The position numbers and the translations under genes were made by a program. The notes beneath the pieces are model-generated. The model had not been told where the DNA came from and did not search any database. It saw nothing but the letters and a program-made list of their open reading frames with translations. Shown here one piece after another: positions 2,802 to 24,006 of a stretch of 24,006 nt of DNA. Source of the stretch: a virus; UHGV virus genome UHGV-1462358; one strand, given 5' to 3'. Each line of letters begins with the position of its first letter. Within the stretch, counting starts at the first letter, position 1.

Positions 2802-4390
2802 AAATACCATCTTTAGTGGGACCTGACGGGAAAACATCCCTTCGGGAATACGCGGGATATCATGGTGGTGGTGGCGGGTTTGGTGGGCAGCTGCGGGGCT
2901 GGAATCCGCCGAGTGAAAGTGCAGATGCCGCACTCCTTCCCAACTATTCTCGTGGAAATGCCCGCGCTGACGATCTGGTGCGAAATAATGGCTATGCAGC
3001 AAACGCCGTGCAGCTCCACCAGGACCACATCGTCGGGTCATTTTTCAGACTCAGTTATCGACCGAGCTGGCGCTATCTTGGCATCAATGAGGAGGATTCA
3101 CGCGCATTTTCTCGGGATGTGGAAGCCGCCTGGAATGAGTATGCCGAAGATGACTTCTGCGGGATTGATGCCGAACGCAAGCGAACGTTTACGATGATGA
3201 TTCGTGAAGGTGTAGCAATGCATGCGTTTAACGGTGAATTATGCATGCAGGCGACATGGGACAGCGATTCAACGCGTCTTTTCCGTACTCAGTTCAAAAT
3301 GGTTAGTCCGAAGCGCGTCAGTAATCCAAGCAACATCGGTGATACCCGGAACTGTCGCGCCGGGGTAAAAATCAATAATAGTGGTGCTGCGCTGGGATAT
3401 TACGTCAGCGATGACGGTTATCCTGGTTGGATGGCGCAGAACTGGACCTACATACCTCGCGAGCTCCCCGGAGGGCGCCCCTCTTTTATCCATGTCTTCG
3501 AACCGATAGAGGACGGACAGACCCGAGGAGCCAATGCGTTTTACAGCGTTATGGAGCAGATGAAAATGCTCGATACCCTGCAAAACACTCAGCTCCAGAG
3601 TGCGATAGTGAAGGCCATGTATGCTGCCACCATCGAGAGTGAGCTGGATACGCAGACGGCGATGGATTTCATTCTCGGCGCGGATAATAAAGAGCAGCAG
3701 AGCAAACTGACGGGCTGGCTCGGTGAAATGGCGTCCTATTACTCAGCTGCGCCGGTTCGCCTGGGTGGGGCAAGGGTTCCACACCTGTTGCCGGGTGATT
3801 CTCTCAACCTTCAGTCGGCGCAGGATACCGATAACGGCTACTCGACTTTTGAACAGTCACTGCTGCGCTATATTGCCGCTGGGCTGGGTGTATCGTATGA
3901 GCAGCTTTCGCGAAATTATTCTCAGATGAGTTACTCGACTGCGCGCGCAAGCGCTAACGAGTCATGGGCGTACTTCATGGGCCGTCGCAAGTTTGTGGCA
4001 TCCCGACAGGCCTGTCAGATGTTTCTTTGCTGGCTGGAAGAGGCAATTGTCCGCCGCGTGGTCACACTTCCTTCAAAAGCCAGATTCAGCTTTCAGGAAG
4101 CGAGAACAGCCTGGGGAAATGCCAACTGGATCGGCTCAGGCCGCATGGCTATTGACGGGCTGAAAGAGGTACAGGAAGCCGTCATGCTCATCGAGGCTGG
4201 TCTCAGTACGTATGAGAAAGAATGCGCCAAACGCGGTGATGATTATCAGGAGATTTTTGCCCAGCAGGTCCGGGAAACAATGGAGCGTCGTGCTGCGGGT
4301 CTGAAACCACCGGCATGGGCCGCTGCCGCTTTTGAGGCTGGACTGAAAAAATCAAACGAGGAGGAGCAAGATGGCGCACGAGCTGCGTAA
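2798..4390 (+). CDS. B: Portal protein (lambda gpB homolog)
   Basis: 530 aa. [28 protein letters not shown] and the C-terminal [42 protein letters not shown] match lambda gpB as recalled. Position after W is syntenic. Confidence 0.95.
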
Positions 4391-5714
4391 TCTTCCGCAT
4401 ATCGCCAGTATGGCCTTTAATGAGCCGCTGATGCTTGAACCCGCCTACGCGCGGGTTTTCTTTTGTGCCTTAGCTGGTCAGCTGGGCATCACCCGGCTGA
4501 CAGATACCGTCTCTGGCATCACGCTTGACGCCGGACAAATAGCCGAACCGCTGGCGCTGTTTGGTGAAGATGATGACATGGATACCCGACCATCGCGAAG
4601 CTATCAGGTGGCAAATGGCATCGCGGTCTTGCCGGCTTCCGGCACTCTGGTGAGTAAAACCCGTGCGCTGCAGCCTTATTCCGGGATGACGGGTTACAAC
4701 GGGATCATCGCTCGCCTGCAGCAGGCCATCAGTGACCCCGGCGTCGACGGCATTCTACTGGACATGGATACGCCGGGTGGCATGGTGTCCGGGGCGTTTG
4801 ACTGCGCCGACATTATTGCCCGTATGCGCGATATCAAACCCATCTGGGCGCTGGCCAATGACATGAACTGCAGTGCAGGTCAGCTTATTGCCAGTTCGGC
4901 ATCGCGACGGCTGGTCACACAAACGGCCAGAACCGGCTCCATTGGGGTCATGATGGCGCACAGTAACTATGGCGCTGCGCTCAAAACTAACGGCGTTGAG
5001 GTCACGCTGATTTACAGCGGCGATCGCAAGGTCGACGGCAACCCTTACGAAAAGCTTCCGAAAGATGTGCGTGCTGATTTCCAGACGCGTATCGATGCCA
5101 CTCGTCAGATGTTTGCCGAAAAGGTTTCCGCTTATACCGGCATGTCTGTTCAGGACGTGCTGGACACCGAAGCGGCAGTATTCTCCGGCCAGGAATCTTT
5201 GGATAACGGGCTGGCGGATGAACTTGTTAACAATACCGATGCGCTCGGCGTGATGCGCGAAGCACTCGACAGACGCAAAAAAACAACCCTTGGAGGAACT
5301 ATGCCATCACCTTCTGCATCAGCTGTGACCACTAAGCCAGTTGACCAGGCAGCAACTCAGACAACTGCATCAGCTGAACAGGCCACTACCGTTGACACGA
5401 CAATTGCTTCCGTAGCAGCCCCTGTAGATGTCAGTGCGCAGGTTACTGCAGCAGTAGCTGCAGAGAATAGTCGCATCATGGGCATCCTGAACTGCGACGA
5501 GGCTAAAGGGCGTGAGTCACAGGCGCGAGCACTGGCCGAAACGCCGGGTATGACGGTAGAGAGCGCACAGCGCATTCTGGCTGCTGCACCGCAAAGTGCC
5601 CAGACGCGTACCGATACGGCGCTGGATCGTTTGATGGAAACAGCACCCGGTGCACTCCAAGCAGGTAGCGCATCTTCTGATGCCGCTGACGATTTGTTAA
5701 ACACCCCCGTTTAA
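4371..5714 (+). CDS. C: Head maturation protease / scaffold (lambda gpC homolog)
   Basis: 447 aa. N-terminus [37 protein letters not shown] and the C-terminal AAVAAENSRIMGILNC...LLNTPV match lambda gpC as recalled. Overlaps the B 3' end. Confidence 0.9.
   Translation: MAHELRNLPHIASMAFNEPLMLEPAYARVFFCALAGQLGITRLTDTVSGITLDAGQIAEPLALFGEDDDMDTRPSRSYQVANGIAVLPASGTLVSKTRALQPYSGMTGYNGIIARLQQAISDPGVDGILLDMDTPGGMVSGAFDCADIIARMRDIKPIWALANDMNCSAGQLIASSASRRLVTQTARTGSIGVMMAHSNYGAALKTNGVEVTLIYSGDRKVDGNPYEKLPKDVRADFQTRIDATRQMFAEKVSAYTGMSVQDVLDTEAAVFSGQESLDNGLADELVNNTDALGVMREALDRRKKTTLGGTMPSPSASAVTTKPVDQAATQTTASAEQATTVDTTIASVAAPVDVSAQVTAAVAAENSRIMGILNCDEAKGRESQARALAETPGMTVESAQRILAAAPQSAQTRTDTALDRLMETAPGALQAGSASSDAADDLLNTPV
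5304..5714 (+). CDS. nu3: Nested in-frame scaffolding protein (lambda Nu3-like), translated from an internal start within C
   Basis: In-frame ATG at 5304 preceded by GGAGGA (5295-5300). Lambda encodes Nu3 in-frame within the 3' third of C. Ala/Thr/Gln-rich composition fits a scaffold. Confidence 0.5.
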   Translation, partial: PSPSASAVTTKPVDQAATQTTASAEQATTVDTTIASVAAPVDVSAQVTAAVAAENSRIMGILNCDEAKGRESQARALAETPGMTVESAQRILAAAPQSAQTRTDTALDRLMETAPGALQAGSASSDAADDLLNTPV

Positions 5715-15436: not shown

Positions 15437-18400
15437 ATGGCTAAAACAATTACCGGACGAAAAGGCGGGAGCTCCAGTTCCCGAACTCCCACCGAACAGC
15501 CTGATGATCTGCAATCTGTAGCGAAGGCAAAGATCCTCGTTGCGCTTGGGGAAGGGGAGTTTGCTGGACAGCTCACCGGGAAGGATATCTACCTGGACGG
15601 AACGGCGCTGGAGAACGCCGACGGCTCCCAAAACTTCAGCGGCGTTACGTGGGAATTTCGTCCGGGGACTCAGGCACAAAAATATATTCAGGGTATCCCC
15701 GGCACCGAAAATGAAATCAGCGTGGGCACCGAAGTGTCAAGCACCACCGGCTGGACACATACCTTTACCAACACGCAACTGTCAGCCGTTCGCCTGCGCC
15801 TCAAGTGGCCATCGCTTTTTAAACAGGAGGATGATGGCGATCTGGTTGGCTATTCAATTAACTACGCTATTGATCTGCAGACCGATGGCGGCACCTGGCA
15901 GACGGTACTTAATACCAGCGTAACCGGCAAGACAACTTCCGGCTACGAACGCAGCCATCGCATTGACCTACCGCAGGCAGGCAGCACATGGACGGTGCGC
16001 CTGCGTAAGCTAACGGCGGATGCCAACAGCGCGAAAATTGGTGACACGATGACGCTGCAGAGCTATACAGAGGTCATTGACGCCAAACTGCGTTATCCAA
16101 ATACCGCGCTGCTGTACATCGAATTCGACTCAAGCCAGTTTAACGGCTCTATCCCGCAAATATCCTGCGAACCGCGAGGGCGTGTAATCCGCGTTCCGGA
16201 TACGTATGACCCGGAGACCCGCACCTATAGCGGCACATGGACGGGGGCGTTTAAGTGGGCGTGGACGGATAATCCAGCCTGGATTTTTTACGATCTGGTG
16301 GTGAGCGACCGCTTTGGGCTGGGCAATCGCCTGACGGCGGCCAATATTGATAAATGGACGCTTTACCAGGTCGCGCAATATTGCGATCAGCCGGTTCCTG
16401 ATGGTAAAGGCGGTAGCGGCACTGAGCCTCGCTATACCTGCAACGTGTATGTGCAGGAGAGGAATGACGCCTATACCGTGTTACGAGATTTTGCGGCGAT
16501 ATTCCGGGGCATGACTTACTGGGGTGGCGATCAAATCGTTGCGCTGGCGGATATGCCCCGCGATGTGGATTACAGCTACACGCGTGCAAACGTGGTTAAT
16601 GGGCGCTTTACCTATTCGGGCAGCACCACGAAAACCCGCTATACCACAGCACTGGTTTCCTGGTCCGATCCGGGTAATGCCTACGCGGATGCGATGGAGC
16701 CTGTATTTGAGCAGGATCTCGTTGCTCGCTTTGGCACAAATCAGCTCGAAATGACAGCCATTGGTTGTACCAGACAGTCAGAAGCGAACCGAAAGGGGCG
16801 CTGGGGTATTCTCACCAACAACAAGGATCGCGTTGTTTCGTTCGATGTCGGGCTGGACGGAAACATACCGCAGCCTGGCTATATCATCGCTGTGGCAGAC
16901 GAGCTGCTTTCCGGAAAGGTTATGGGCGGACGCATCAGCGCCGTTAATGGTCGCGTTATCAAACTTGACCGTGTAGCTGATGCGGCAGCAGGTGATCGCC
17001 TTATCCTCAACCTTCCCTCCGGAGCGTCACAGAGCAGGACAATTCAGGCGGTTAACGGGGAATCGGTCACAGTCACCACCGCATACAGTGAGACGCCGCA
17101 GGCCGAAGCTGTCTGGGTGGTTGAGTCAAACGAACTGTACGCACAGCAGTACCGTGTTGTGAGCGTCACTGATAACGATGATGGCACTTTCACCATTACC
17201 GGTGCATGGCACGATCCGGATAAATATGCCCGAATCGATACCGGAGCCATTATTGACCAGCGGCCGGTGAGCGTGATCCCGCCGGGCAATCAGTCACCGC
17301 CAGACAACATCGTAATCAGTTCGTTTTCGGTGGTGCAGCAGAATATCAGCGTCGAAACCATGCGCGTGAGCTGGGACCAGGCGCAGAATGCTATCGCCTA
17401 TGAAGCGCAATGGCGCCGCAACGACGGGAACTGGGTTAACGTGCCGCGCAGTTCCACCACGTCATTCGACGTTCCTGGGATTTATGCCGGGCGCTATCTG
17501 GTACGTGTACGCGCCATCAATGCCGCAGAAATTTCATCCGGGTGGGGATATTCGGAAGAGAAAACGCTGACGGGTAAAGTGGGCAATCCGCCGAAACCGG
17601 TCGGCTTCATCGCTTCCGATAATGTGGTATTCGGTATCGAGCTGAGCTGGGGATTCCCGGCGAACACCGACGACACGCTGAAGACGGAAATTCAGTACAG
17701 TCTGACTGGGACGGAAGACGATGCGATGCTGCTGGCAGACGTACCCTATCCGCAGCGCAAGTATCAGCAGATGGGCCTAAAGGCTGGGCAAATTTTCTGG
17801 TACCGCGCGCAGCTGGTGGACCGCAGCGGAAACGAATCAGGGTATACAGACTTTGTGCGCGGGCAGGCCAGCATCGATGTATCCGATATCACCGATGCAA
17901 TCCTGGAGGATATGAAAGAGTCGGAAACGTTCAAAGACCTGATCGAGAACGCGGTAGACAGCAATGAAAAAATTGCTGGTATGGCTGACGACATTAAACA
18001 GGCCAACGACGAACTGGCGCAACAGGCGCAGGATATCGCCAAAAACGCCCAGGATATCGGGAAGGTTCAGACCAGCGTTACAAACCTGTCGAGCACGGTC
18101 GGAGATGTGTCTTCTTCTCTGAGCAAGCTTGAGCAGACAGTGGCGACGGCTGATACCGCGCTGGGCCAGCGCATCGATAACATCAGCGTGTCTGTGGACG
18201 GTATGACGGGAGGAGTGAAGAACTCTGCCATCGCGATTATTCAGGGCAACCTGGCGCAGGTGGCGGCGCGCAAAACGCTGTCTGCATCCGTCGCCGGTAA
18301 CAGCGCGCAGCTGGACCGCATTGATGAGGTGATCGTCAACGAGAAAGAGGCAACGGCGCGTTCGCTGCTGAGTTTGCAGACTAACGTGAACGGCAACAAG

Positions 18401-18982
18401 GCATCTATCAACAGCCTGAACCAGACGTTCTCCGATTACCAGCAGGCCACGGCCACGCAGATAAACGGGATCACAGCGACCGTCAACGGACACACATCAG
18501 CCATTACCACTAACGCTCAGGCCATAGCGAACGTTAACGGTGATCTGAAGGCGATGTACAGCATCAAGGTTGGTGTCTCCAGCAATGGTCAGTATTACGC
18601 CGCAGGGATGGGGATCGGCGTGGAGAATACGCCGTCCGGCATGCAGTCACAGGTCATCTTCCTGGCTGACCGCTTCGCCGTCACCACGGCAGCAGGTAAC
18701 AGCGTGGCTTTGCCGTTTGTGATCCAGAACGGGCAGACATTCATCCGGGCCAGTTTCATCCAGGACGGCACTATCAGCAACGCAAAGATTGGTAATTTTA
18801 TCCAGTCGAACAATTATGTTGCTGGTTCTGCTGGCTGGAAGCTTGATAAAGGGGGGACGTTTGAGAACTACGGTTCGACTGCTGGTGAGGGAGCCATGAA
18901 ACTGACAAATCAGACGATCAGCGTCAAAGATGGCAGTAATGTTCTTAGGGTGCAGGTTGGCCGATTAACGGGAGTATTCTGA
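15437..18982 (+). CDS. J: Central tail fibre / host specificity protein (lambda gpJ homolog)
   Basis: 1181 aa versus 1132 for lambda J. Conserved blocks (TEVIDAKLRYPNTALLYIEFDS, YSGTWTGAFKWAWTDNPAWIFYDL, YQVAQYCDQPVPDGKGGSGTEPRYTCNVY) match lambda J as recalled. The C-terminal ~150 aa differ from lambda. Confidence 0.95.
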   Translation: MAKTITGRKGGSSSSRTPTEQPDDLQSVAKAKILVALGEGEFAGQLTGKDIYLDGTALENADGSQNFSGVTWEFRPGTQAQKYIQGIPGTENEISVGTEVSSTTGWTHTFTNTQLSAVRLRLKWPSLFKQEDDGDLVGYSINYAIDLQTDGGTWQTVLNTSVTGKTTSGYERSHRIDLPQAGSTWTVRLRKLTADANSAKIGDTMTLQSYTEVIDAKLRYPNTALLYIEFDSSQFNGSIPQISCEPRGRVIRVPDTYDPETRTYSGTWTGAFKWAWTDNPAWIFYDLVVSDRFGLGNRLTAANIDKWTLYQVAQYCDQPVPDGKGGSGTEPRYTCNVYVQERNDAYTVLRDFAAIFRGMTYWGGDQIVALADMPRDVDYSYTRANVVNGRFTYSGSTTKTRYTTALVSWSDPGNAYADAMEPVFEQDLVARFGTNQLEMTAIGCTRQSEANRKGRWGILTNNKDRVVSFDVGLDGNIPQPGYIIAVADELLSGKVMGGRISAVNGRVIKLDRVADAAAGDRLILNLPSGASQSRTIQAVNGESVTVTTAYSETPQAEAVWVVESNELYAQQYRVVSVTDNDDGTFTITGAWHDPDKYARIDTGAIIDQRPVSVIPPGNQSPPDNIVISSFSVVQQNISVETMRVSWDQAQNAIAYEAQWRRNDGNWVNVPRSSTTSFDVPGIYAGRYLVRVRAINAAEISSGWGYSEEKTLTGKVGNPPKPVGFIASDNVVFGIELSWGFPANTDDTLKTEIQYSLTGTEDDAMLLADVPYPQRKYQQMGLKAGQIFWYRAQLVDRSGNESGYTDFVRGQASIDVSDITDAILEDMKESETFKDLIENAVDSNEKIAGMADDIKQANDELAQQAQDIAKNAQDIGKVQTSVTNLSSTVGDVSSSLSKLEQTVATADTALGQRIDNISVSVDGMTGGVKNSAIAIIQGNLAQVAARKTLSASVAGNSAQLDRIDEVIVNEKEATARSLLSLQTNVNGNKASINSLNQTFSDYQQATATQINGITATVNGHTSAITTNAQAIANVNGDLKAMYSIKVGVSSNGQYYAAGMGIGVENTPSGMQSQVIFLADRFAVTTAAGNSVALPFVIQNGQTFIRASFIQDGTISNAKIGNFIQSNNYVAGSAGWKLDKGGTFENYGSTAGEGAMKLTNQTISVKDGSNVLRVQVGRLTGVF

Positions 18983-18983
18983 A

Positions 18984-19286
18984 ATGGCTTATGGAATACA
19001 GACCTGGGATGCTTCAGGAAAACCCAACAACTATGGCATCAAACCCGTTTCCGTCGTTGGGCGAATACAGCTGGCTGCCGGGCAAACCTCCGGCAGCTGG
19101 TCTTTTACGGTGCCCTCAGGAATGAAAGTTGGTTTTGTTCTTTCACTTGATGAAGGAGGTAACAGCGTAGGGCGGCGCATTGTCGCGTCAGGGAGCACAA
19201 TAACCGTAAGCGCTGCATCTTCTGTAGGTCTGGGTAATTATCCGGCCTCAAAGTGTGAAGTGGTCGTTTTCATGGAGAAAGCATAA
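18984..19286 (+). CDS. Hypothetical protein, translationally coupled to J (function unknown)
   Basis: 100-aa ORF with ATG 1 nt after the J stop and GGGAG 9 nt upstream. Shares a G-x3-W-D-A-x-G-K motif with the next ORF. Confidence 0.6.
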   Translation: MAYGIQTWDASGKPNNYGIKPVSVVGRIQLAAGQTSGSWSFTVPSGMKVGFVLSLDEGGNSVGRRIVASGSTITVSAASSVGLGNYPASKCEVVVFMEKA

Positions 19287-19960
19287 TGGCCGAATTTGGC
19301 GCGATGATATTAATGGACAACGGGAACCCATTTGTAACGCCCCAGTCAACGCCTTTTTGTCTTTACGGCAAGTACACTTTCAACTCCTCTGCTAATGGCA
19401 GTTCGCAGCAGGTTGCTCAGAATATTGCATTAAATGCTGACTACCCTGTGATGGTATTTATCAGGACCACAAATACCGCCCAGCCCACGCCAGTAATATC
19501 TTACCGGAACGGAGGAAATGTATATGTCGCGGGGGTTAATCCCTATAACAAGAGCTTCACGTTAACCGCATATATATTTGCCATATTTCCCCAGACGTTA
19601 CCGAAATGGGGGATGGCCATCTGGGATGCGGCAGGAAAGCTGGTGCTCACTAATGAGTCCCGGGTGTTGTCCGACCTACAGACAATTGGAACGCCTGGCG
19701 CAAACGGAGGGATAAATATCGATCAGACACTTAGCGGGCCATGGGCTGTTGCACCTGCACAGCTTGGCCAAAGCATCGTTGTGAATAACTCAACCCAGCC
19801 TCCGACAATCTACACCATTAATGCTTATTCGGCGTGCAGGTTTGACGGGGCCAATACGAGGATAAACGCAGGGGGGACCTCCACTGGCACAGGCTCTCCG
19901 GTAGGGGTAACGAATACTGGAATTTCCTTAACCGCGATAAATACAGCGGCCTATGACTGA
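19286..19960 (+). CDS. Hypothetical protein containing two tandem copies of the domain found in the preceding ORF
   Basis: 224 aa. Start overlaps the previous stop (TAATG). Motif copies at the N-terminus (GAMILMDNGNP) and mid-protein (GMAIWDAAGK) match YGIQTWDASGKP of the upstream ORF. Confidence 0.6.
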   Translation: MAEFGAMILMDNGNPFVTPQSTPFCLYGKYTFNSSANGSSQQVAQNIALNADYPVMVFIRTTNTAQPTPVISYRNGGNVYVAGVNPYNKSFTLTAYIFAIFPQTLPKWGMAIWDAAGKLVLTNESRVLSDLQTIGTPGANGGINIDQTLSGPWAVAPAQLGQSIVVNNSTQPPTIYTINAYSACRFDGANTRINAGGTSTGTGSPVGVTNTGISLTAINTAAYD

Positions 19961-20000
19961 TTGATCGTTTTGGGCGATCAATAACTGATAATTGATCTAT
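19961..20000 (+). promoter_or_regulatory. Inverted-repeat, GATC-rich putative operator/promoter region upstream of the lipoprotein moron
   Basis: TTGATCG-N7-CGATCAA (19961-19981) and an AT-rich ATAATTGAT-N7-ATCAATTAT repeat just downstream. Three GATC sites lie within about 35 bp. Confidence 0.3.
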
Positions 20001-20071
20001 CAAATCAATTATACCCACCTCTTTCATGTTGGTATTGTCTAAGTTCATGAATACCTCTGGATATCATCAAA

Positions 20072-20305
20072 ATGATTAAGCTTCTTATCGGTATGGCTTG
20101 CGCTGCCATGCTTTCAGGTTGCGCTGGTGTACTTGAGAAACAGGAACCGATTTGCAGCGGCACGGCATATATGGGTGGCCATGAGAATACCGTTATGATT
20201 TACGCCGTTCGAAAGCAAAACAACCAGACGCAATACCGGGCCGGATATCCCTTTAACTGGCGCTGGGTAAGTGCGAACACATTCACAAGCACGACATGTA
20301 AATAA
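20072..20305 (+). CDS. Small outer-membrane lipoprotein moron; putative Cor/Llp-like superinfection-exclusion protein
   Basis: 77 aa. Signal peptide MIKLLIGMACAAMLSGC with lipobox L-S-G-C. Located 3' of the receptor-binding genes and flanked by its own terminator. The Cor/Llp assignment rests on size, lipobox and position only. Confidence 0.6.
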   Translation: MIKLLIGMACAAMLSGCAGVLEKQEPICSGTAYMGGHENTVMIYAVRKQNNQTQYRAGYPFNWRWVSANTFTSTTCK

Positions 20306-20325
20306 CTCATGACTTTCAATGCAAA

Positions 20326-20347
20326 CCTCGCCTCGGCGGGGTTTTTT
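20326..20347 (+). terminator. Intrinsic terminator after the lipoprotein gene
   Basis: GC-rich hairpin (CCTCGCC/GGCGGGG arms) followed by TTTTTT at 20342-20347, 21 nt after the stop at 20305. Confidence 0.6.
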
Positions 20348-20363
20348 ATTGCCTGGAGAAAAT

Positions 20364-21473
20364 ATGCTTTATAACACAGGAACTATCTCTATTAACGGAA
20401 ATACCGCAACCGGATCCGGTACAAACTGGACTGCACCGGCCAGCCAGGTTCGCGCTGGCCAGACGATTATTGTCATGTCTAACCCGGTTCAGATGTTCCA
20501 GATTTCATCCGTGAATAGCGCCACGTCAATGACGGTAACGCCTGCTGCATCACCGGCGCTGAGCGGCCAGAAGTACGGCATTCTGGTATCAGACAATATC
20601 TCGGTTGATGGGCTGGCGCTGGCCATGTCGCAGCTTATCAAGGAGTATGACGAGAATATTGGTGCGTGGGAGACGTTCGCCACAACCTCAGCCAACCAGA
20701 ACATTACCGTTACGATCAATGGCACCAGTTTATCAATCCCGGCTCTTGGGAAATTACTGCAGAAGGGGAGCAACGGAGCTTTGCCGGTTAATCAAGGTGG
20801 TACCGGCGCAACGAATGCCGCAGACGCTCGCACAAACCTTGGTTTAGGAAGTAGTGCGACAAAGGATGTCGGAACTGCGGCAGGGAATGTTATGCAGGTG
20901 GGAGCTTTTGGGGTTGGTGCTGCTCTCCAAAATAAGCCCACAGATGCCAGTTCATCCTTCATCAGTGATGCTGCTGGCAATACTCTGTGGGCTCCTGCGA
21001 ATGGCTGTGGGTTTCAGAGTTCCTACACCGAGCAGCGAATTGCGCAGCTGTGGATTACTTACGGTGGTGCGATATTCAGCCGTTTTCTAACAACCACTGA
21101 TGACCCTCAAACACCAAAATCATCAGTGCCGTGGGCGCAGCTGCAGTCTGCAGGTACATCGGACATAAATTTCAAGAAGGTTACTGGAGAACTTAATTTA
21201 GAAGTGTCTCTGGCCAACATCGTGGCAATGGATTTTAAGACCTTCTACTACCTTGCTGATGAAGAGAAAACGATACGCCGAGGTGTTGTTGCTCAGGAAC
21301 TGGAAAAGATAGATCCGCAATATGTTCACTCGGCTGAGGAGTCGGGGAAAATGACCCTAGACCTCAATCCTCTGGTGCTCGATGCGCTGGCGGCAATCAA
21401 AGAGCTGGCAATCCGCGTCAGCGCATTAGAGGGCGACGCTAAATCTCCGGCTTCTGGCTCATCCGCTGGTTAA
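20364..21473 (+). CDS. Side tail fibre protein: constant N-terminal part (to ~20840) fused to the variable part currently in the expressed orientation; C-terminal intramolecular chaperone-like (peptidase S74-type) domain
   Basis: ATG at 20364 with GGAGA RBS; the track's 20319 start runs through the terminator hairpin. GGTGATNAADARTNLGLGSSAT hinge motif is typical of phage tail fibres. C-terminal ...FKTFYYLADEE..GVVAQELEKIDPQYV...LVLDALAAIKELAIRVSALE fits the self-cleaving chaperone domain pattern. Confidence 0.75.
   Translation: MLYNTGTISINGNTATGSGTNWTAPASQVRAGQTIIVMSNPVQMFQISSVNSATSMTVTPAASPALSGQKYGILVSDNISVDGLALAMSQLIKEYDENIGAWETFATTSANQNITVTINGTSLSIPALGKLLQKGSNGALPVNQGGTGATNAADARTNLGLGSSATKDVGTAAGNVMQVGAFGVGAALQNKPTDASSSFISDAAGNTLWAPANGCGFQSSYTEQRIAQLWITYGGAIFSRFLTTTDDPQTPKSSVPWAQLQSAGTSDINFKKVTGELNLEVSLANIVAMDFKTFYYLADEEKTIRRGVVAQELEKIDPQYVHSAEESGKMTLDLNPLVLDALAAIKELAIRVSALEGDAKSPASGSSAG
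20827..20852. repeat. Left recombination site (gix/hix-like 26-bp site) of the invertible segment
   Basis: CTCGCACAAACC-TT-GGTTTAGGAAGT: dyad-symmetric AAACC-NN-GGTTT centre, as in hix/gix sites as recalled. Inner half matches the inner half of the right site at 10 of 12 positions. Confidence 0.6.
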
Positions 21474-22228
21474 ACAGTGAATCTGCGGGCATATCCAAGC
21501 GAACATCGATCCAGCTGTTCGCCGGTACGTCCATCGGTTCACCTTTGGTTTTGATGATTTCACCTTCATCGCTCAGGATGTATTTGCGTTTATACAGACG
21601 GATAGTCAGCCCACCGCTATCGGTTTGCTCTGCCTCAACTACACCCAGTTCCCCCATGCCGCCAGGGTCCATTGGGGGAAGTAACTGCCATCCCTCAGAC
21701 GCCAGGCCTGCCGAACCTGTGAGAACATAAACGCCGACATCAAGCCGTGAAATAGTAATGCCCTCAGCCTCGGCATTCGCCGCACCGCAGCCGCACCAGG
21801 TAAAACCATCCTCCGCTATATCAGCACGCTGGCACTCATCCTTGCTCGTTACAATTCGTGCCACGGGGGAGGCAGCTTTGATAGTGCCGTCACTGGCTTT
21901 TGTCGTATTAGCTGTATGGTAAAATTCATACCATTTACCTGCTGTTCCGCCTATAACCTGGCTAAACATTTTTCTCCCGACAGGCCCACTTAGCCAGCAC
22001 TCAAAGGTGCCGTAATTTGGGCTTCGGTTCATCCAGACACCGTAGCCCGCATCATTAGTTGGCAGGCCGTTGCCGGAACCAGAGGCAATGTTATAAAAGC
22101 CATTTAATCTCGCGTTTTCGTAACGGTTTTGTTCGGCAGGGGCAACAACACCCAAGCCCAAATCCCCTACAGAAAGTATATCGCCAGATGAGCTGTACGC
22201 GTTCCTTGTAGCGCTGCTTCCCAAACCA
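20840..22228. mobile_element. About 1.4 kb invertible DNA segment (Mu G / P1 C / e14 P-type) carrying two convergent alternative tail-fibre C-terminal coding regions
   Basis: Bounded by inverted gix-like sites with identical TT core dinucleotides in inverted orientation. Both cores fall at codon positions 2-3 in the respective reading frames. A Gin/Pin-family invertase gene lies immediately adjacent. Confidence 0.6.
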
Positions 22229-22229
22229 A
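21439..22229 (-). CDS. Alternative tail-fibre C-terminal segment (currently in non-expressed orientation; no start codon of its own within the segment)
   Basis: Minus-strand ORF encoding ...NVGLGSSATRNAYSS..., sharing the (N)xGLGSSAT junction motif with the + strand fibre. It overlaps the + fibre 3' end convergently by 35 bp. The track's GTG start at 22272 lies outside the segment and is probably fortuitous. Confidence 0.6.
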
Positions 22230-22241
22230 CGTTTAATAGAT
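22216..22241. repeat. Right recombination site (gix/hix-like) of the invertible segment
   Basis: GCTTCCCAAACC-AA-CGTTTAATAGAT on the + strand. Its reverse complement ATCTATTAAACG-TT-GGTTTGGGAAGC aligns with the left site. Confidence 0.55.
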
Positions 22242-22305
22242 TGCCACGGGCCGGCCTGGCCGATAACTTCACCTGATTTTTTTGCAGAATTTATTGGGTG
22301 AAAAA

Positions 22306-22861
22306 TATGCAAATTGGCTATGTCAGAGTGTCAACAAATGACCAAAATACAGATCTCCAGCGCCAATCTCTCGAACGCGCAGGATGTGAACAGGTTTTTG
22401 AAGAAAAAATGAGCGGGACGGTAGCGAACCGGCCAGCGCTCAAAAAGCTTCTGCGGACTCTGAATGCGGGCGATACACTGGTGGTGTGGAAACTAGATCG
22501 CCTCGGGCGAAGCATGCGAAATTTAGTGCTGCTGGTGGACGAACTCCGACAGCGGGGCATTCACTTTAAGAGCCTCACGGACAGCATTGATACATCAAGT
22601 CCAATGGGGCGTTTTATATTTCACATCATGTCAGCGCTGGCGGAAATGGAAAGAGAGTTAATCGTCGAACGCACCCGGGCTGGATTAGCGGCGGCGCGGG
22701 AAAAAGGGCGAATAGGTGGCAGACGTCCAAAATTAACTCCCGAGCAATGGGCACAGGCTGGGAGATTAATATTAAACGGCGTGGATAGAAAACAAGTGGC
22801 AATAATTTATGATGTCGCTGTATGCACGCTTTATAAAAAATTTCCGGTGGGACAGGCTTAA
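22306..22861 (+). CDS. Serine recombinase, DNA invertase (Gin/Hin/Pin/Cin family)
   Basis: MQIGYVRVSTNDQNTDLQR... with catalytic Ser in the VRVSTNDQ motif. TLVVWKLDRLGRS, SLTDSIDTSSPMGRF and the C-terminal HTH (KQVAIIYDVAVCTLYKKFP) are near-identical to Gin/Hin as recalled. ATG at 22306 preferred over the track's GTG at 22298. Confidence 0.9.
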
Positions 22862-22903
22862 ATGATTGAAGGGCAGCTGCTAGATGGGCTGCCCGTCAAA
22901 GTA

Positions 22904-23167
22904 TTATCCATTCTGCCGTACAGTTGGAAATTCAGACGTCAGCCACATGTCAGATTCATCAAACATTTCCTCCAGCATACGGTTCAGCTTTTCCCGATCA
23001 CTTTTGCTGGCATCACTATTTAAGCCGTTCGCCTGCATCGGCTTTACCTTCACTTCGGCATCAGGAAAAATCTGGTGCACCCGCTTCGTTAGTTCAGCCA
23101 GGATGATCTCTCTGGCCCCTTGGAGCCCCTCAACATTTCGCTTGTCATAAACCAGTTCAACAAACAT
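22904..23167 (-). CDS. DinI-family protein (SOS-inducible, RecA-modulating)
   Basis: Internal ATG at 23167 with GAGAGGA RBS gives an 88-aa product. The C-terminal LEEMFDESDMWL resembles the DinI C-terminus (...WESADDWF). A LexA box lies 57 nt upstream. The track's 160-aa version starts beyond the promoter and is rejected. Confidence 0.7.
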   Translation of the reverse strand: MFVELVYDKRNVEGLQGAREIILAELTKRVHQIFPDAEVKVKPMQANGLNSDASKSDREKLNRMLEEMFDESDMWLTSEFPTVRQNG

Positions 23168-23223
23168 ACGGATCCTCTCATAAGTGAAAATTGCCTGTGC
23201 TTGATCTGTTTTCATAAAAATAC

Positions 23224-23243
23224 TACTGTATATACATACAGTC
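23224..23243. promoter_or_regulatory. LexA operator (SOS box) in the divergent promoter region
   Basis: TACTGTATATACATACAGTC matches the CTGT-N8-ACAG consensus (TACTGTATATATATACAGTA) at 18 of 20 positions. A candidate -35 TTGACT overlaps it on the minus strand. Confidence 0.8.
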
Positions 23244-23266
23244 AATAAGCAAGTGAGGGTGCGTTC

Positions 23267-23506
23267 ATGCCTCGTCAACCGGATATTCGTGCTGCTTTTA
23301 TTGCGGCCATACAGCAAAACCCGAAGGGCTATCTCTGCCTGCATACAGACAGATTCATCGCTGAACTGCAGGAGAGGCACTGGCATTTCAGCCAGGCAGA
23401 TGCAAATTCATGGATCGAACGATACCAGCCAGACTTCGCCGATAAGACGACAAACGGAAGTGAGAACCGATACTGGATCCTGCGTAACATGGGGAGGGTT
23501 TTCTAA
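23267..23506 (+). CDS. Hypothetical protein (79 aa), first gene of LexA-box-proximal operon
   Basis: ATG at 23267 with GAGGG 7 nt upstream. Stop overlaps the next start (TAATG). No family recognised. Confidence 0.5.
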   Translation: MPRQPDIRAAFIAAIQQNPKGYLCLHTDRFIAELQERHWHFSQADANSWIERYQPDFADKTTNGSENRYWILRNMGRVF

Positions 23507-23826
23507 TGGGGTTTCCATCGCCAGCCATGGATTACCAGGAGCAGCGCATGACAATAGATGTTATCTGCGGTGTAGATAACAACTGCCGGGTTATTGAAAC
23601 TTCATGCGGCTGGGCCGTTATAAACGTCAGTCTTAAGCCAGAAGGAGGGGATACGTTGCTGGTTAGCATGGACGGGAGAAACCAGTTCGTGAAGCTAATG
23701 GGCCACGCGCTGATCACTCAAGATGGTGAAGCGATAGAAGGGGAAGCTTTGAATGACGTAACGGTACACGGCGTTCTTACACATACACTTAACCAAGTTA
23801 AAGACGATAAATCGCCTGTAATGTAG
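23506..23826 (+). CDS. Hypothetical protein (106 aa), second gene of the operon
   Basis: Translationally coupled to the upstream ORF. Followed by a terminator at 23892-23920. No family recognised; alternative internal starts are possible. Confidence 0.45.
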   Translation: MGFPSPAMDYQEQRMTIDVICGVDNNCRVIETSCGWAVINVSLKPEGGDTLLVSMDGRNQFVKLMGHALITQDGEAIEGEALNDVTVHGVLTHTLNQVKDDKSPVM

Positions 23827-23891
23827 CGTGTAAATGTCGGGAGTTATTCCCCCATTTTTCCCCAATGATTCCCCGTACAAATTTCAAACAT

Positions 23892-23920
23892 AAAAAAACC
23901 AGCCGTAAGAGGCTGGTTTT
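23892..23920. terminator. Bidirectional intrinsic terminator between the two-gene operon and the tRNA
   Basis: CCAGCC-GTAAGA-GGCTGG hairpin (23899-23916) flanked by A7 on the 5' side and T4 on the 3' side. It reads as a terminator on both strands. Confidence 0.7.
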
Positions 23921-23931
23921 CAATGTGTTTT

Positions 23932-24006
23932 TGGTCGGCACGAGAGGATTTGAACCTCCGACCCCCGACACCCCATGACGGTGCGCTACCAGGCTGCGCT
24001 ACGTGC
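23932..24006 (-). tRNA. tRNA-Pro (anticodon GGG), 5'-truncated by the window edge
   Basis: Reverse complement reads GCACGTAGCGCAGCCTGGTAGCGCACCGTCATGGGGTGTCGGGGGTCGGAGGTTCAAATCCTCTCGTGCCGACCA. It has D-arm, anticodon loop AUGGGGU (GGG), T-arm GGTTCAAATCC and 3' CCA, and matches E. coli proL as recalled apart from 2 missing 5' nt. Confidence 0.85.

Follow-up and report, generated by a model that had tools for sequence, protein, structure and literature searches.

A probable Pin/Gin-family DNA inversion switch acting on the side tail fibre of a phi80/lambda-like Escherichia coli prophage

The locus studied here raises the question whether the 3' part of a tail-fibre gene, flanked by two short inverted sites and followed by an invertase gene, is exchanged by site-specific inversion so that one N-terminus is fused to either of two tips. 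The window (the whole stretch of 24,006 nucleotides analysed, virus genome UHGV-1462358) belongs to a phi80/lambda-like (siphovirus) prophage of E. coli, inserted at tRNA-Pro(GGG), which looks complete and has a full head and tail module. From the sequence comparisons described below, we consider it very probable that the side tail-fibre gene holds a site-specific inversion switch of the Pin/Gin family which is active. The switch type is well known, being the classical Pin/Gin DNA inversion by which a tail-fibre tip is swapped. The arrangement is not new either, as it is already present in phage LLS (PQ299149) and phage mEpX1, and cassettes without a chaperone gene are a minor variation on a known theme.

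As assembled, the side tail-fibre gene (20364..21473, + strand) encodes 369 aa, a constant N-terminus followed by an S74-type tip, according to the list of open reading frames, tail-fibre PHROGs and PDB anchor matches. A ribosome-binding site (GGAGA) is located 7 nt upstream of the ATG at 20364, and residues 3-97 match the anchor domains of phage depolymerases and fibres in the PDB. The constant part (20364..20840, + strand) comprises residues 1-159 from this ATG, and its end at ...NAADARTNL (GGTGATNAADARTNL) had been placed at about residue 158 in the preliminary description. It lies outside the invertible segment, is collinear in both orientation isomers and is 83-95% identical in phi80-like phages and prophages. 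There is a strong terminator after cor, upstream of the fibre gene, which suggests late, antiterminated expression of the fibre rather than expression in the lysogen.

The invertible segment (20841..22227, 1387 bp between the cores) consists wholly of two convergent cassettes, whose 3' ends overlap by 35 bp (21439-21473). Cassette 1 (20841..21473, + strand), which is expressed here, is a tip with a Peptidase_S74 intramolecular chaperone domain at its end (PF13884, E=1.3e-8, residues 266-321 of the 369-aa fibre) and has a PDB match to the C-terminus of pb1, the L-shaped fibre of T5 (8hqz). In S74 fibres, a Ser...Lys motif opens the domain, and autocleavage releases the domain once the trimer has folded. 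The motif SDINFK starts at residue 266 of the fibre (about nt 21159), a putative Ser/Lys dyad, and the S74 domain may be autocleaved. Cassette 2 (21439..22227, - strand), which is silent here, encodes a 262-aa tip with a Phage_tail_C_2 domain (PF25670, E=1e-31) and can be aligned over its full length with the fibre of phage SU10 (PDB 7z47_D, residues 537-785). Tail-fibre PHROGs match both cassette 2 and the 369-aa fibre, and no specific NCBIfam name was obtained for the two fibres. Both cassettes, including the minus-strand frame, for which a lack of fibre homologues would have weakened the proposal, are bona fide tail-fibre tips by Pfam, PDB and PHROGs. The absence of a tfa/U-like chaperone gene from the segment, as proposed earlier, also holds: the two overlapping cassettes occupy all 1387 bp, and no Tfa family was found in Pfam or PHROGs among the open reading frames in or near the segment. 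The loci of relatives that were examined likewise have no tail-fibre assembly chaperone gene, while in Mu and e14 each cassette carries its own (U/U', tfaP/tfaE).

The two 26-bp inverted sites of the preliminary description proved to lie exactly where it had put them. The left, pixL-like site is at 20827-20852 on the + strand (CTCGCACAAACCTTGGTTTAGGAAGT; CTCGCAC AAACC TT GGTTT AGGAAGT, core TT at 20839-20840), and the right, pixR-like site is at 22216-22241 on the - strand (reverse complement ATCTATTAAACGTTGGTTTGGGAAGC; ATCTATT AAACG TT GGTTT GGGAAGC, core AA on the + strand at 22228-22229). Both have imperfect 12-bp half-sites around the same non-palindromic 2-bp core TT. They agree at 18/26 positions; over the central 21-mer the count is 18/21, and with the comparison carried on into the segment it is 27/35. 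A repeat search with an 8-nt seed missed the pair because the longest exact in-register run between the arms is 7 bp, and direct comparison was used instead. With up to 3 mismatches, the 21-mer occurs at exactly two places in the 24-kb window, in inverted orientation, and in the shuffled-sequence control that had been called for, 0 of 100 dinucleotide shuffles gave any match. A looser pattern (AAACNNNNGTTT) also occurs only at these two places in the 24 kb, against 0.4 expected. The window has two crossover sites and no more, as searched over its 24 kb. The pair is far beyond chance and is pix-like: the left and right sites match the real e14 pixL and pixR at 19/26 each, with the central AAACCTTGGTTT and AAACGTTGGTTTGGGA in common, and match Mu gix at 12-14/26. 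Moreover, the central AAAC(C/G)TTGGTTT matches the real pix and cix sites (MG1655, P1); the sites, labelled gix/hix-like earlier, are of the pix/gix type. In the + fibre frame and in the minus-strand frame alike, the cores occupy codon positions 2-3, as had been claimed, and they lie within a conserved ...ARTNLGLG... motif. The same motif occurs in phage HK639 without an invertase, and the sequence of the left site is thus partly maintained by coding constraint.

The gene directly downstream (22307..22861, + strand) encodes a serine DNA invertase of 184 aa with an N-terminal catalytic domain, a nucleophile Ser10 in YVRVSTNDQ and a C-terminal HTH_7 domain (Pfam Resolvase, E=2e-49, and HTH_7). 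The Gin/Hin-like enzyme expected here is a homologue of Gin/Cin/Pin, with identities of 74% to Gin, 76% to Cin, 79% to PinE and 96% to Fin of phage LLS. Its residues 1-182, including YVRVSTNDQ, align with the Gin structures 3uj3 (E=3.5e-86) and 4m6f, and only sub-threshold recombinase families were found for it in NCBIfam. Invertases of the Din family depend on Fis and negative supercoiling, can complement one another, and use a recombinational enhancer with two Fis sites within the 5' part of the invertase gene. A candidate enhancer in the window gene (22328..22391, + strand) contains the Fis-like 15-mers GTGTCAACAAATGAC (22328-22342) and GCGCAGGATGTGAAC (22377-22391), 49 bp apart centre to centre. 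Both are nearly invariant across gin, cin, pin, fin and the window gene, and these 15-mers are enriched in codons that all five genes share unchanged (5/8 vs 10/103, Fisher p=0.001). A simple scan for the Fis motif gave ambiguous pairs. These sequence features may mark a recombinational enhancer at this position; the dependence of the switch on Fis and the enhancer, as well as its rate, we infer.

Evidence that the segment inverts comes from other assemblies. Inversion of 20841-22227 in silico preserved the frame and turned the 369-aa product of the present orientation into a 421-aa fibre, so that the constant N-terminus can be joined in frame to either C-terminus, as in Mu G, P1 C and e14 P, where it likewise lies outside the segment. 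In a protein-level search, the predicted 421-aa fusion was found in nature as an exact match (100% identity, 100% coverage) on at least 7 public contigs from E. coli assemblies. The inverted orientation, which the preliminary description had suggested looking for, is present with unchanged flanks at four loci in other E. coli assemblies (L011-L014). With one of them, GCA_032526265.1 (L011), the inverted window forms a gap-free alignment of 9643 bp that has a single mismatch (99.99% identity), which means that both orientations are natural and that the breakpoints lie inside the sites. The window as it stands is 100% identical to contig CAXJPI010000001.1 of GCA_964043915.1 across the 6643 bp that were compared. 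Because the half-sites differ, the exchange can be confined to TTGGTTT at 20839-20845, the centre of the site. Among exact-match contigs the two orientations are about equally common (at least 10 for the present one, by the exact 369-aa protein, vs at least 7 for the inverted one), these variants coming from different assemblies (draft and Logan). The recombinant left junction that the inversion predicts was looked for as an exact pattern and had no match in viral_contigs or genome_contigs; the latter has one genome per species, and this null result therefore says little. None of the complete E. coli genomes in the RefSeq set has the locus of the window at 80% coverage or more. Two metagenome contigs (L015 and L017) were considered as both orientations in one sample and rejected, as their C_2 cassette is joined to another constant region (86.6% identical); they represent chimeric assemblies or a second phage and were left out of the evidence.

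The mechanism that we propose builds on what is directly established: the sites and reading frames, the homology of the invertase, the occurrence of the segment in both orientations and a crossover confined to the site centre. The invertase would bind both 26-bp sites and cut at the 2-bp cores (TT/AA), and subunit rotation would invert the 1387 bp between them. With the cores at codon positions 2-3 of ...ARTNLGLG..., either tip would be fused in frame to the 159-residue N-terminus. The present orientation would give the 369-aa fibre, whose tip has its own, putatively self-cleaving S74 chaperone domain, and the flipped one the 421-aa fibre with the Phage_tail_C_2 tip. A lysogen population may then release virions with two alternative side fibres. 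The two tips may bind different receptors, and by analogy with known systems the switch would change host range (or adsorption).

The inversion might have been made not by the invertase but by general homologous recombination (RecA) acting on short inverted repeats, given that the arms share 27/35 bp. RecA needs identity far longer than 7 bp, and the longest in-register exact run here is far below this need. The exchange took place at the centre of a pix-type site, a cognate invertase adjoins the segment, and precise half-site exchange recurred at three sites in relatives, one of them with a degenerate outer half (AAAGG), so that we give this explanation almost no weight. Inversion by the invertase could still be a past event that made both isomers, with the switch now inactive in the window genome. 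Pin systems of cryptic prophages are often assumed to be inactive, and decay is seen in relatives: the silent cassette of mEpX1 is truncated, and at one locus (L021) both the invertase and the boundary of the cassette are altered. On the other hand, the window has an intact invertase gene with Ser10 kept, intact sites and two intact cassettes. A single substitution in 9.6 kb separates the isomers, which indicates a very recent inversion, and the near-equal counts of the two orientations also argue for a working switch; a fossil is very unlikely.

A slightly larger, though still small, probability belongs to the view that the phenotype of the lysogen, and not the host range of the virion, is selected, in that one isoform made in the lysogen may block the adsorption of other phages. 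The precedent is StfE2 of e14: inversion of the e14 P segment by PinQ, PinR or PinE gives a fibre fusion that blocks T2 adsorption (PMC12529663). The sites of the window are almost the same as pix, and it is plausible that resident Pin enzymes act on them too. The complete-looking prophage with its full head and tail module, and the late expression suggested by the terminator, speak against this view.

Among the known systems, the e14 P segment of E. coli K-12 is closest in its invertase (PinE) and its sites. It shares the TT core, the imperfect AAACG outer half at the invertase-proximal site and the order of constant part, segment and invertase, with the 5' end of the invertase gene adjoining the right site. 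However, the e14 cassettes each have a tfa gene (tfaP, tfaE) whereas those of the window are single ORF fragments without tfa, and the e14 element is defective. In the Mu G segment, constant Sc is likewise fused to alternative Sv via crossover sites inside the coding frame, and gin is just downstream of the right site. But the Mu core is TC/GA, its 3-kb segment includes the chaperone genes U and U', and Mu is a myovirus with a baseplate fibre, unlike the side fibre of this siphovirus. The P1 C segment shares the cix centre AAACCTTGGTTT, but cin flanks the segment on the opposite side, where its 3' end adjoins cix, and the P1 cassettes include tfa-type genes. The lambdoid phages LLS and mEpX1 share the architecture of the window: cor is followed by stf, whose tip is of the Phage_tail_C_2 or S74 type, then by a convergent silent cassette and the invertase, and there is no tfa. 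The LLS record is annotated with IR-L/IR-R and "invertase Fin". In contrast to the window, both have a TC core, other cassette alleles and the opposite expressed state (C_2 tip expressed), mEpX1 has a mosaic invertase besides its truncated cassette, and orientation isomers are not reported for either. This type of arrangement was commented on in a 2025 paper (PMC12315714).

The relatives of the window suggest how such loci may change. The Min system of p15B (cited in PMC12315714) is a plasmid multiple-inversion system. Relatives with three crossover sites in permuted arrangements (L003-L007) resemble a small Min-type system, although the window itself has two sites only. In the three-cassette relatives (E. 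coli H5/H6 vs LR536430), cassettes are permuted and inverted, the inner half-site travels with each cassette and the three outer half-sites stay fixed in place. At every locus examined, the core does not vary from site to site. It is TT in the window lineage, in e14 and in P1, but TC in Mu, LLS, mEpX1, Phi06_2987 and Enterobacter prophages. A wider reading, which we offer as speculative and rather unlikely, is that phi80/lambda-like siphoviruses of Enterobacteriaceae have a distinct, widespread class of invertible side-fibre switches with chaperone-gene-free plug-in tips (self-chaperoning S74, Phage_tail_C_2), whose cassettes the invertase itself adds, deletes and permutes. The window would then have arisen by site-specific deletion from a form with three cassettes, such as Phi06_2987. 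A joint change of core at both sites (from TC to TT, in a lineage with 99.5% identity in the segment and downstream of it) would re-tune the set of resident Pin/Gin enzymes able to act on the switch.

Finally, the natural orientation isomers confirm a classical Pin/Gin switch on the side tail fibres of a lambdoid siphophage, where such a switch had until now been suggested only by the gene order of phage LLS. In the annotation of related genomes, minus-strand fragments named 'tail fiber domain-containing protein' beside such invertases should be regarded as silent cassettes, not as pseudogenes. Inversion switches can operate without a separate assembly chaperone gene for their tips, which makes these tips compact, exchangeable receptor-binding modules of practical interest for the engineering of phage host range.

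The locus adds another member to the classical Pin/Gin/Cin family, in which tail-fibre segments are invertible. Its enzyme and sites are closest to those of e14 Pin, and its architecture to that of the phages LLS and mEpX1. The left crossover site (20827-20852, + strand; CTCGCACAAACCTTGGTTTAGGAAGT) has its TT core at 20839-20840, and the right one (22216-22241, read as the reverse complement; ATCTATTAAACGTTGGTTTGGGAAGC) shows its core as AA on the + strand at 22228-22229. The two sites are identical at 18 of 26 positions, at 18/21 in the central 21-mer and at 27/35 when extended into the segment. With up to three mismatches allowed, the left 21-mer had only two matches in the 24-kb window, inverted relative to each other, and none of 100 dinucleotide-preserving shuffles matched it, so that the inverted pair is better than expected by chance. 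The loose pattern AAACNNNNGTTT fell in the same two places only in the window (0.4 expected). The cores occupy codon positions 2-3 in both the + fibre frame and the minus-strand open reading frame. The preliminary description had thus placed the sites and their cores correctly.

ATG 20364, with a GGAGA ribosome-binding site upstream, is the most likely start of the fibre gene; the alternative ATG 20319 falls within a terminator hairpin. A strong intrinsic-terminator-like hairpin (20323-20344) is found 20 nt before the start codon, between the fibre gene and the Cor superinfection-exclusion lipoprotein gene (20072-20305, +) just 5' of it. Because such a hairpin precedes the start, fibre expression probably needs antiterminated late transcription. 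The constant part (+ strand) comprises residues 1-159, ending in ...GGTGATNAADARTNL; its existence had been recognized before, with a length of about 158. Cassette 1 (+ strand, up to 21473) ends in a Peptidase_S74 domain (Pfam, E=1.3e-8) that spans residues 266-321 and begins with SDINFK; the cassette matches the T5 L-shaped fibre at the C-terminus of the latter, which is self-cleaving. Cassette 2 (- strand, 22227 down to 21439) is of the Phage_tail_C_2 type (E=1e-31), and its full length aligns to residues 537-785 of the fibre of phage SU10 (PDB 7z47_D). Both alternative tips, including the one on the minus strand, therefore have homologues in fibre families. Together the cassettes occupy the entire 1387-bp segment, and their convergent 3' ends share 35 bp (21439-21473), which encode the last 11 codons of each on opposite strands.

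In-silico inversion of 20841-22227 gave an uninterrupted 421-aa fibre, in which the constant part is joined to the C_2 tip. A search with this product among NCBI E. coli assemblies and Logan/ENA contigs recovered exact 421-aa proteins (100% identity and coverage), on at least seven contigs, and the proposal that inversion would fuse the constant part in frame to either tip was thereby confirmed. The E. coli assembly GCA_032526265.1 aligned to the inverted window over 9643 bp with one mismatch and no gaps; its alignment to the window as given broke into three blocks, the middle one reversed. The window's own orientation was found on at least ten contigs, and GCA_964043915.1 was 100% identical to it across the 6643 bp compared (17364-24006). 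Thus, both orientations of essentially the same prophage occur in nature, and these natural isomers support a functional switch. On going from one isomer to the other, the inner halves GGTTT-AGGAAGT and GGTTT-GGGAAGC trade positions, with the outer half-sites, CTCGCAC-AAACC and ATCTATT-AAACG, unmoved, so the exchange is confined to TTGGTTT (20839-20845), which includes the site centre. RecA-mediated exchange between the arms is disfavoured, since their longest common exact run is only 7 bp. In two ENA metagenome contigs (L015, 4840-5342; L017, 4630-5132), the window's C_2 cassette is joined through the right site to a different constant region, in reverse complement orientation and 86.6% identical; either the assembly is chimeric across the cassette that is shared, or the sample holds a second related phage.

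The serine invertase gene (22307-22861, +) starts 65 bp past the right site, directly downstream of the segment as had been described, and encodes Resolvase and HTH_7 domains with Ser10 in YVRVSTNDQ. The protein matched Gin crystal structures with E=3.5e-86 and is 74% identical to Gin, 76% to Cin, 79% to e14 PinE and 96% to 'Fin' of phage LLS. It is known that the recombinational enhancer lies within the invertase gene for Gin, Cin and Hin. Two Fis-like 15-mers of the window gene (22328-22342, GTGTCAACAAATGAC; 22377-22391, GCGCAGGATGTGAAC), 49 bp apart within its first 90 nt, are almost invariant among gin, cin, pin, fin and the window gene. When only codons with an amino acid invariant across these five genes were counted, identical codons amounted to 5/8 in the 15-mer stretches versus 10/103 elsewhere (Fisher p=0.001), and to 7/20 in codons 1-30 versus 8/91 in the rest (p=0.006). 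Mosaic invertases were also found in mEpX1 (L002, 4618-5166) and in the loci L005 and L007 (5392-5940 in each): over their first ~195 nt and the right site, DNA identity to the window is 88-98%. In the invertases of mEpX1, H6 and LR536430, the first ~65 codons are nearly as in the window (98% in mEpX1), whereas the other two thirds are only 45% identical in protein sequence, as measured for mEpX1. Since the 5' codons are conserved while the remainder has diverged, the 5' end of the gene and the right site seem to travel together. The recombination breakpoint lies directly past the putative enhancer region. The conserved 15-mers, the excess of identical codons and the conserved 5' end all fit a candidate enhancer inside the window invertase gene.

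The genes between the invertase and the att end, namely a DinI-family gene (22904-23167, -), a 79-aa gene of unknown function (23267-23506, +) and a UmuD-like 106-aa gene (23506-23826, +), form a small SOS-related accessory cluster. A bidirectional terminator-like hairpin (23894-23921) precedes a tRNA-Pro(GGG) gene (23932-24006, -) that continues beyond the right end of the window, and in GCA_032526265.1 the next genes are yejM-, yejL- and yejK-like, then rplY. From this tRNA gene and these downstream genes, proL seems to be the tRNA locus that the prophage occupies; the window covers the right arm of the prophage, from terminase to attR.

We compared the sites with those taken directly from the Mu, P1 and E. 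coli K-12 e14 sequences. The e14 pix sites are the closest, each window site matching at 19/26 with the same TT core, and the imperfect AAACG outer half of the invertase-proximal site is the same in both. The core of Mu gix is TC, and its agreement with the window sites is 12-14/26. The gene order of constant part, segment and invertase, with the 5' end of the latter at the right site, is as in Mu and e14. The sole real difference from the textbook systems is that Mu and e14 have U/tfa chaperone genes in each cassette, whereas the window cassettes do not: in Pfam and PHROGs, no ORF in or near the segment matched the Tfa/U tail-fibre assembly families, as the preliminary description had noted for the segment. 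In this family every cassette is of the S74 or Phage_tail_C_2 type, and no tfa gene stands behind any of them. In phage HK639, whose C_2-type fibre gene is fixed, both tfa and invertase genes are absent from the neighbourhood, so the C_2-type tip apparently needs no adjacent chaperone gene. This fibre gene holds a solo pix/gix-like sequence (CTCGCAC AAACC TC GGTTT GGGAAGT; L022, 4464-4489). Its retention without an invertase shows that the left-site sequence is maintained partly through coding for the conserved ARTNLGLG motif.

The constant part is 83-95% identical in phi80-like phages and prophages. The same layout is present in phage LLS, where IR-L, IR-R and a 'serine-type DNA invertase Fin' are annotated and whose authors deemed tail-fiber tip switching likely, as in Mu and P1. 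It recurs in mEpX1, where the tip in expressed position is of the C_2 type, and many Enterobacter hormaechei prophages hold the same C_2 and S74 pair plus an invertase. In one Enterobacter prophage (L021, 5235-6501), the called invertase product has 259 aa (vs 185 aa) and the silent S74 cassette, at 140 aa, is shortened, which suggests that the right site was rearranged or frameshifted. Moreover, three cassettes with three sites occur in Phi06_2987 S (L003, 3606-5823) and in several E. coli prophages; the outer half of their internal site, GGTGAAT-AAAGG, is degenerate. The order is constant part/A, internal site/S74, B2/invertase in E. coli H5/H6 (L005/L006) and constant part/S74, B2/internal site, A/invertase in LR536430 (L007; compared over 3006-5326), the segments being 99.7-99.9% identical. 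Two successive site inversions connect these arrangements. The three-cassette relatives act like a multiple-inversion (Min-like) system of small size. Phi06_2987 S less the cassette between the first two directly repeated sites is equal to the window, whose two-site form may be either the expected product of site-specific deletion or the ancestral form.

One core is common to all sites within every locus: TC in LLS, mEpX1, Phi06_2987, H5/H6, LR536430, MB06232, the Enterobacter prophages and Mu, and TT in the window lineage, e14 and P1. The window and Phi06_2987 S are 99.5% identical over the segment, yet their cores differ at both window sites, being TC at all three sites of the latter (L003, 3618-3619, 4424-4425 and 5810-5811). 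This concerted core change fits the matched-core requirement and also what has been described for Cin as 'localized conversion' of crossover sequences.
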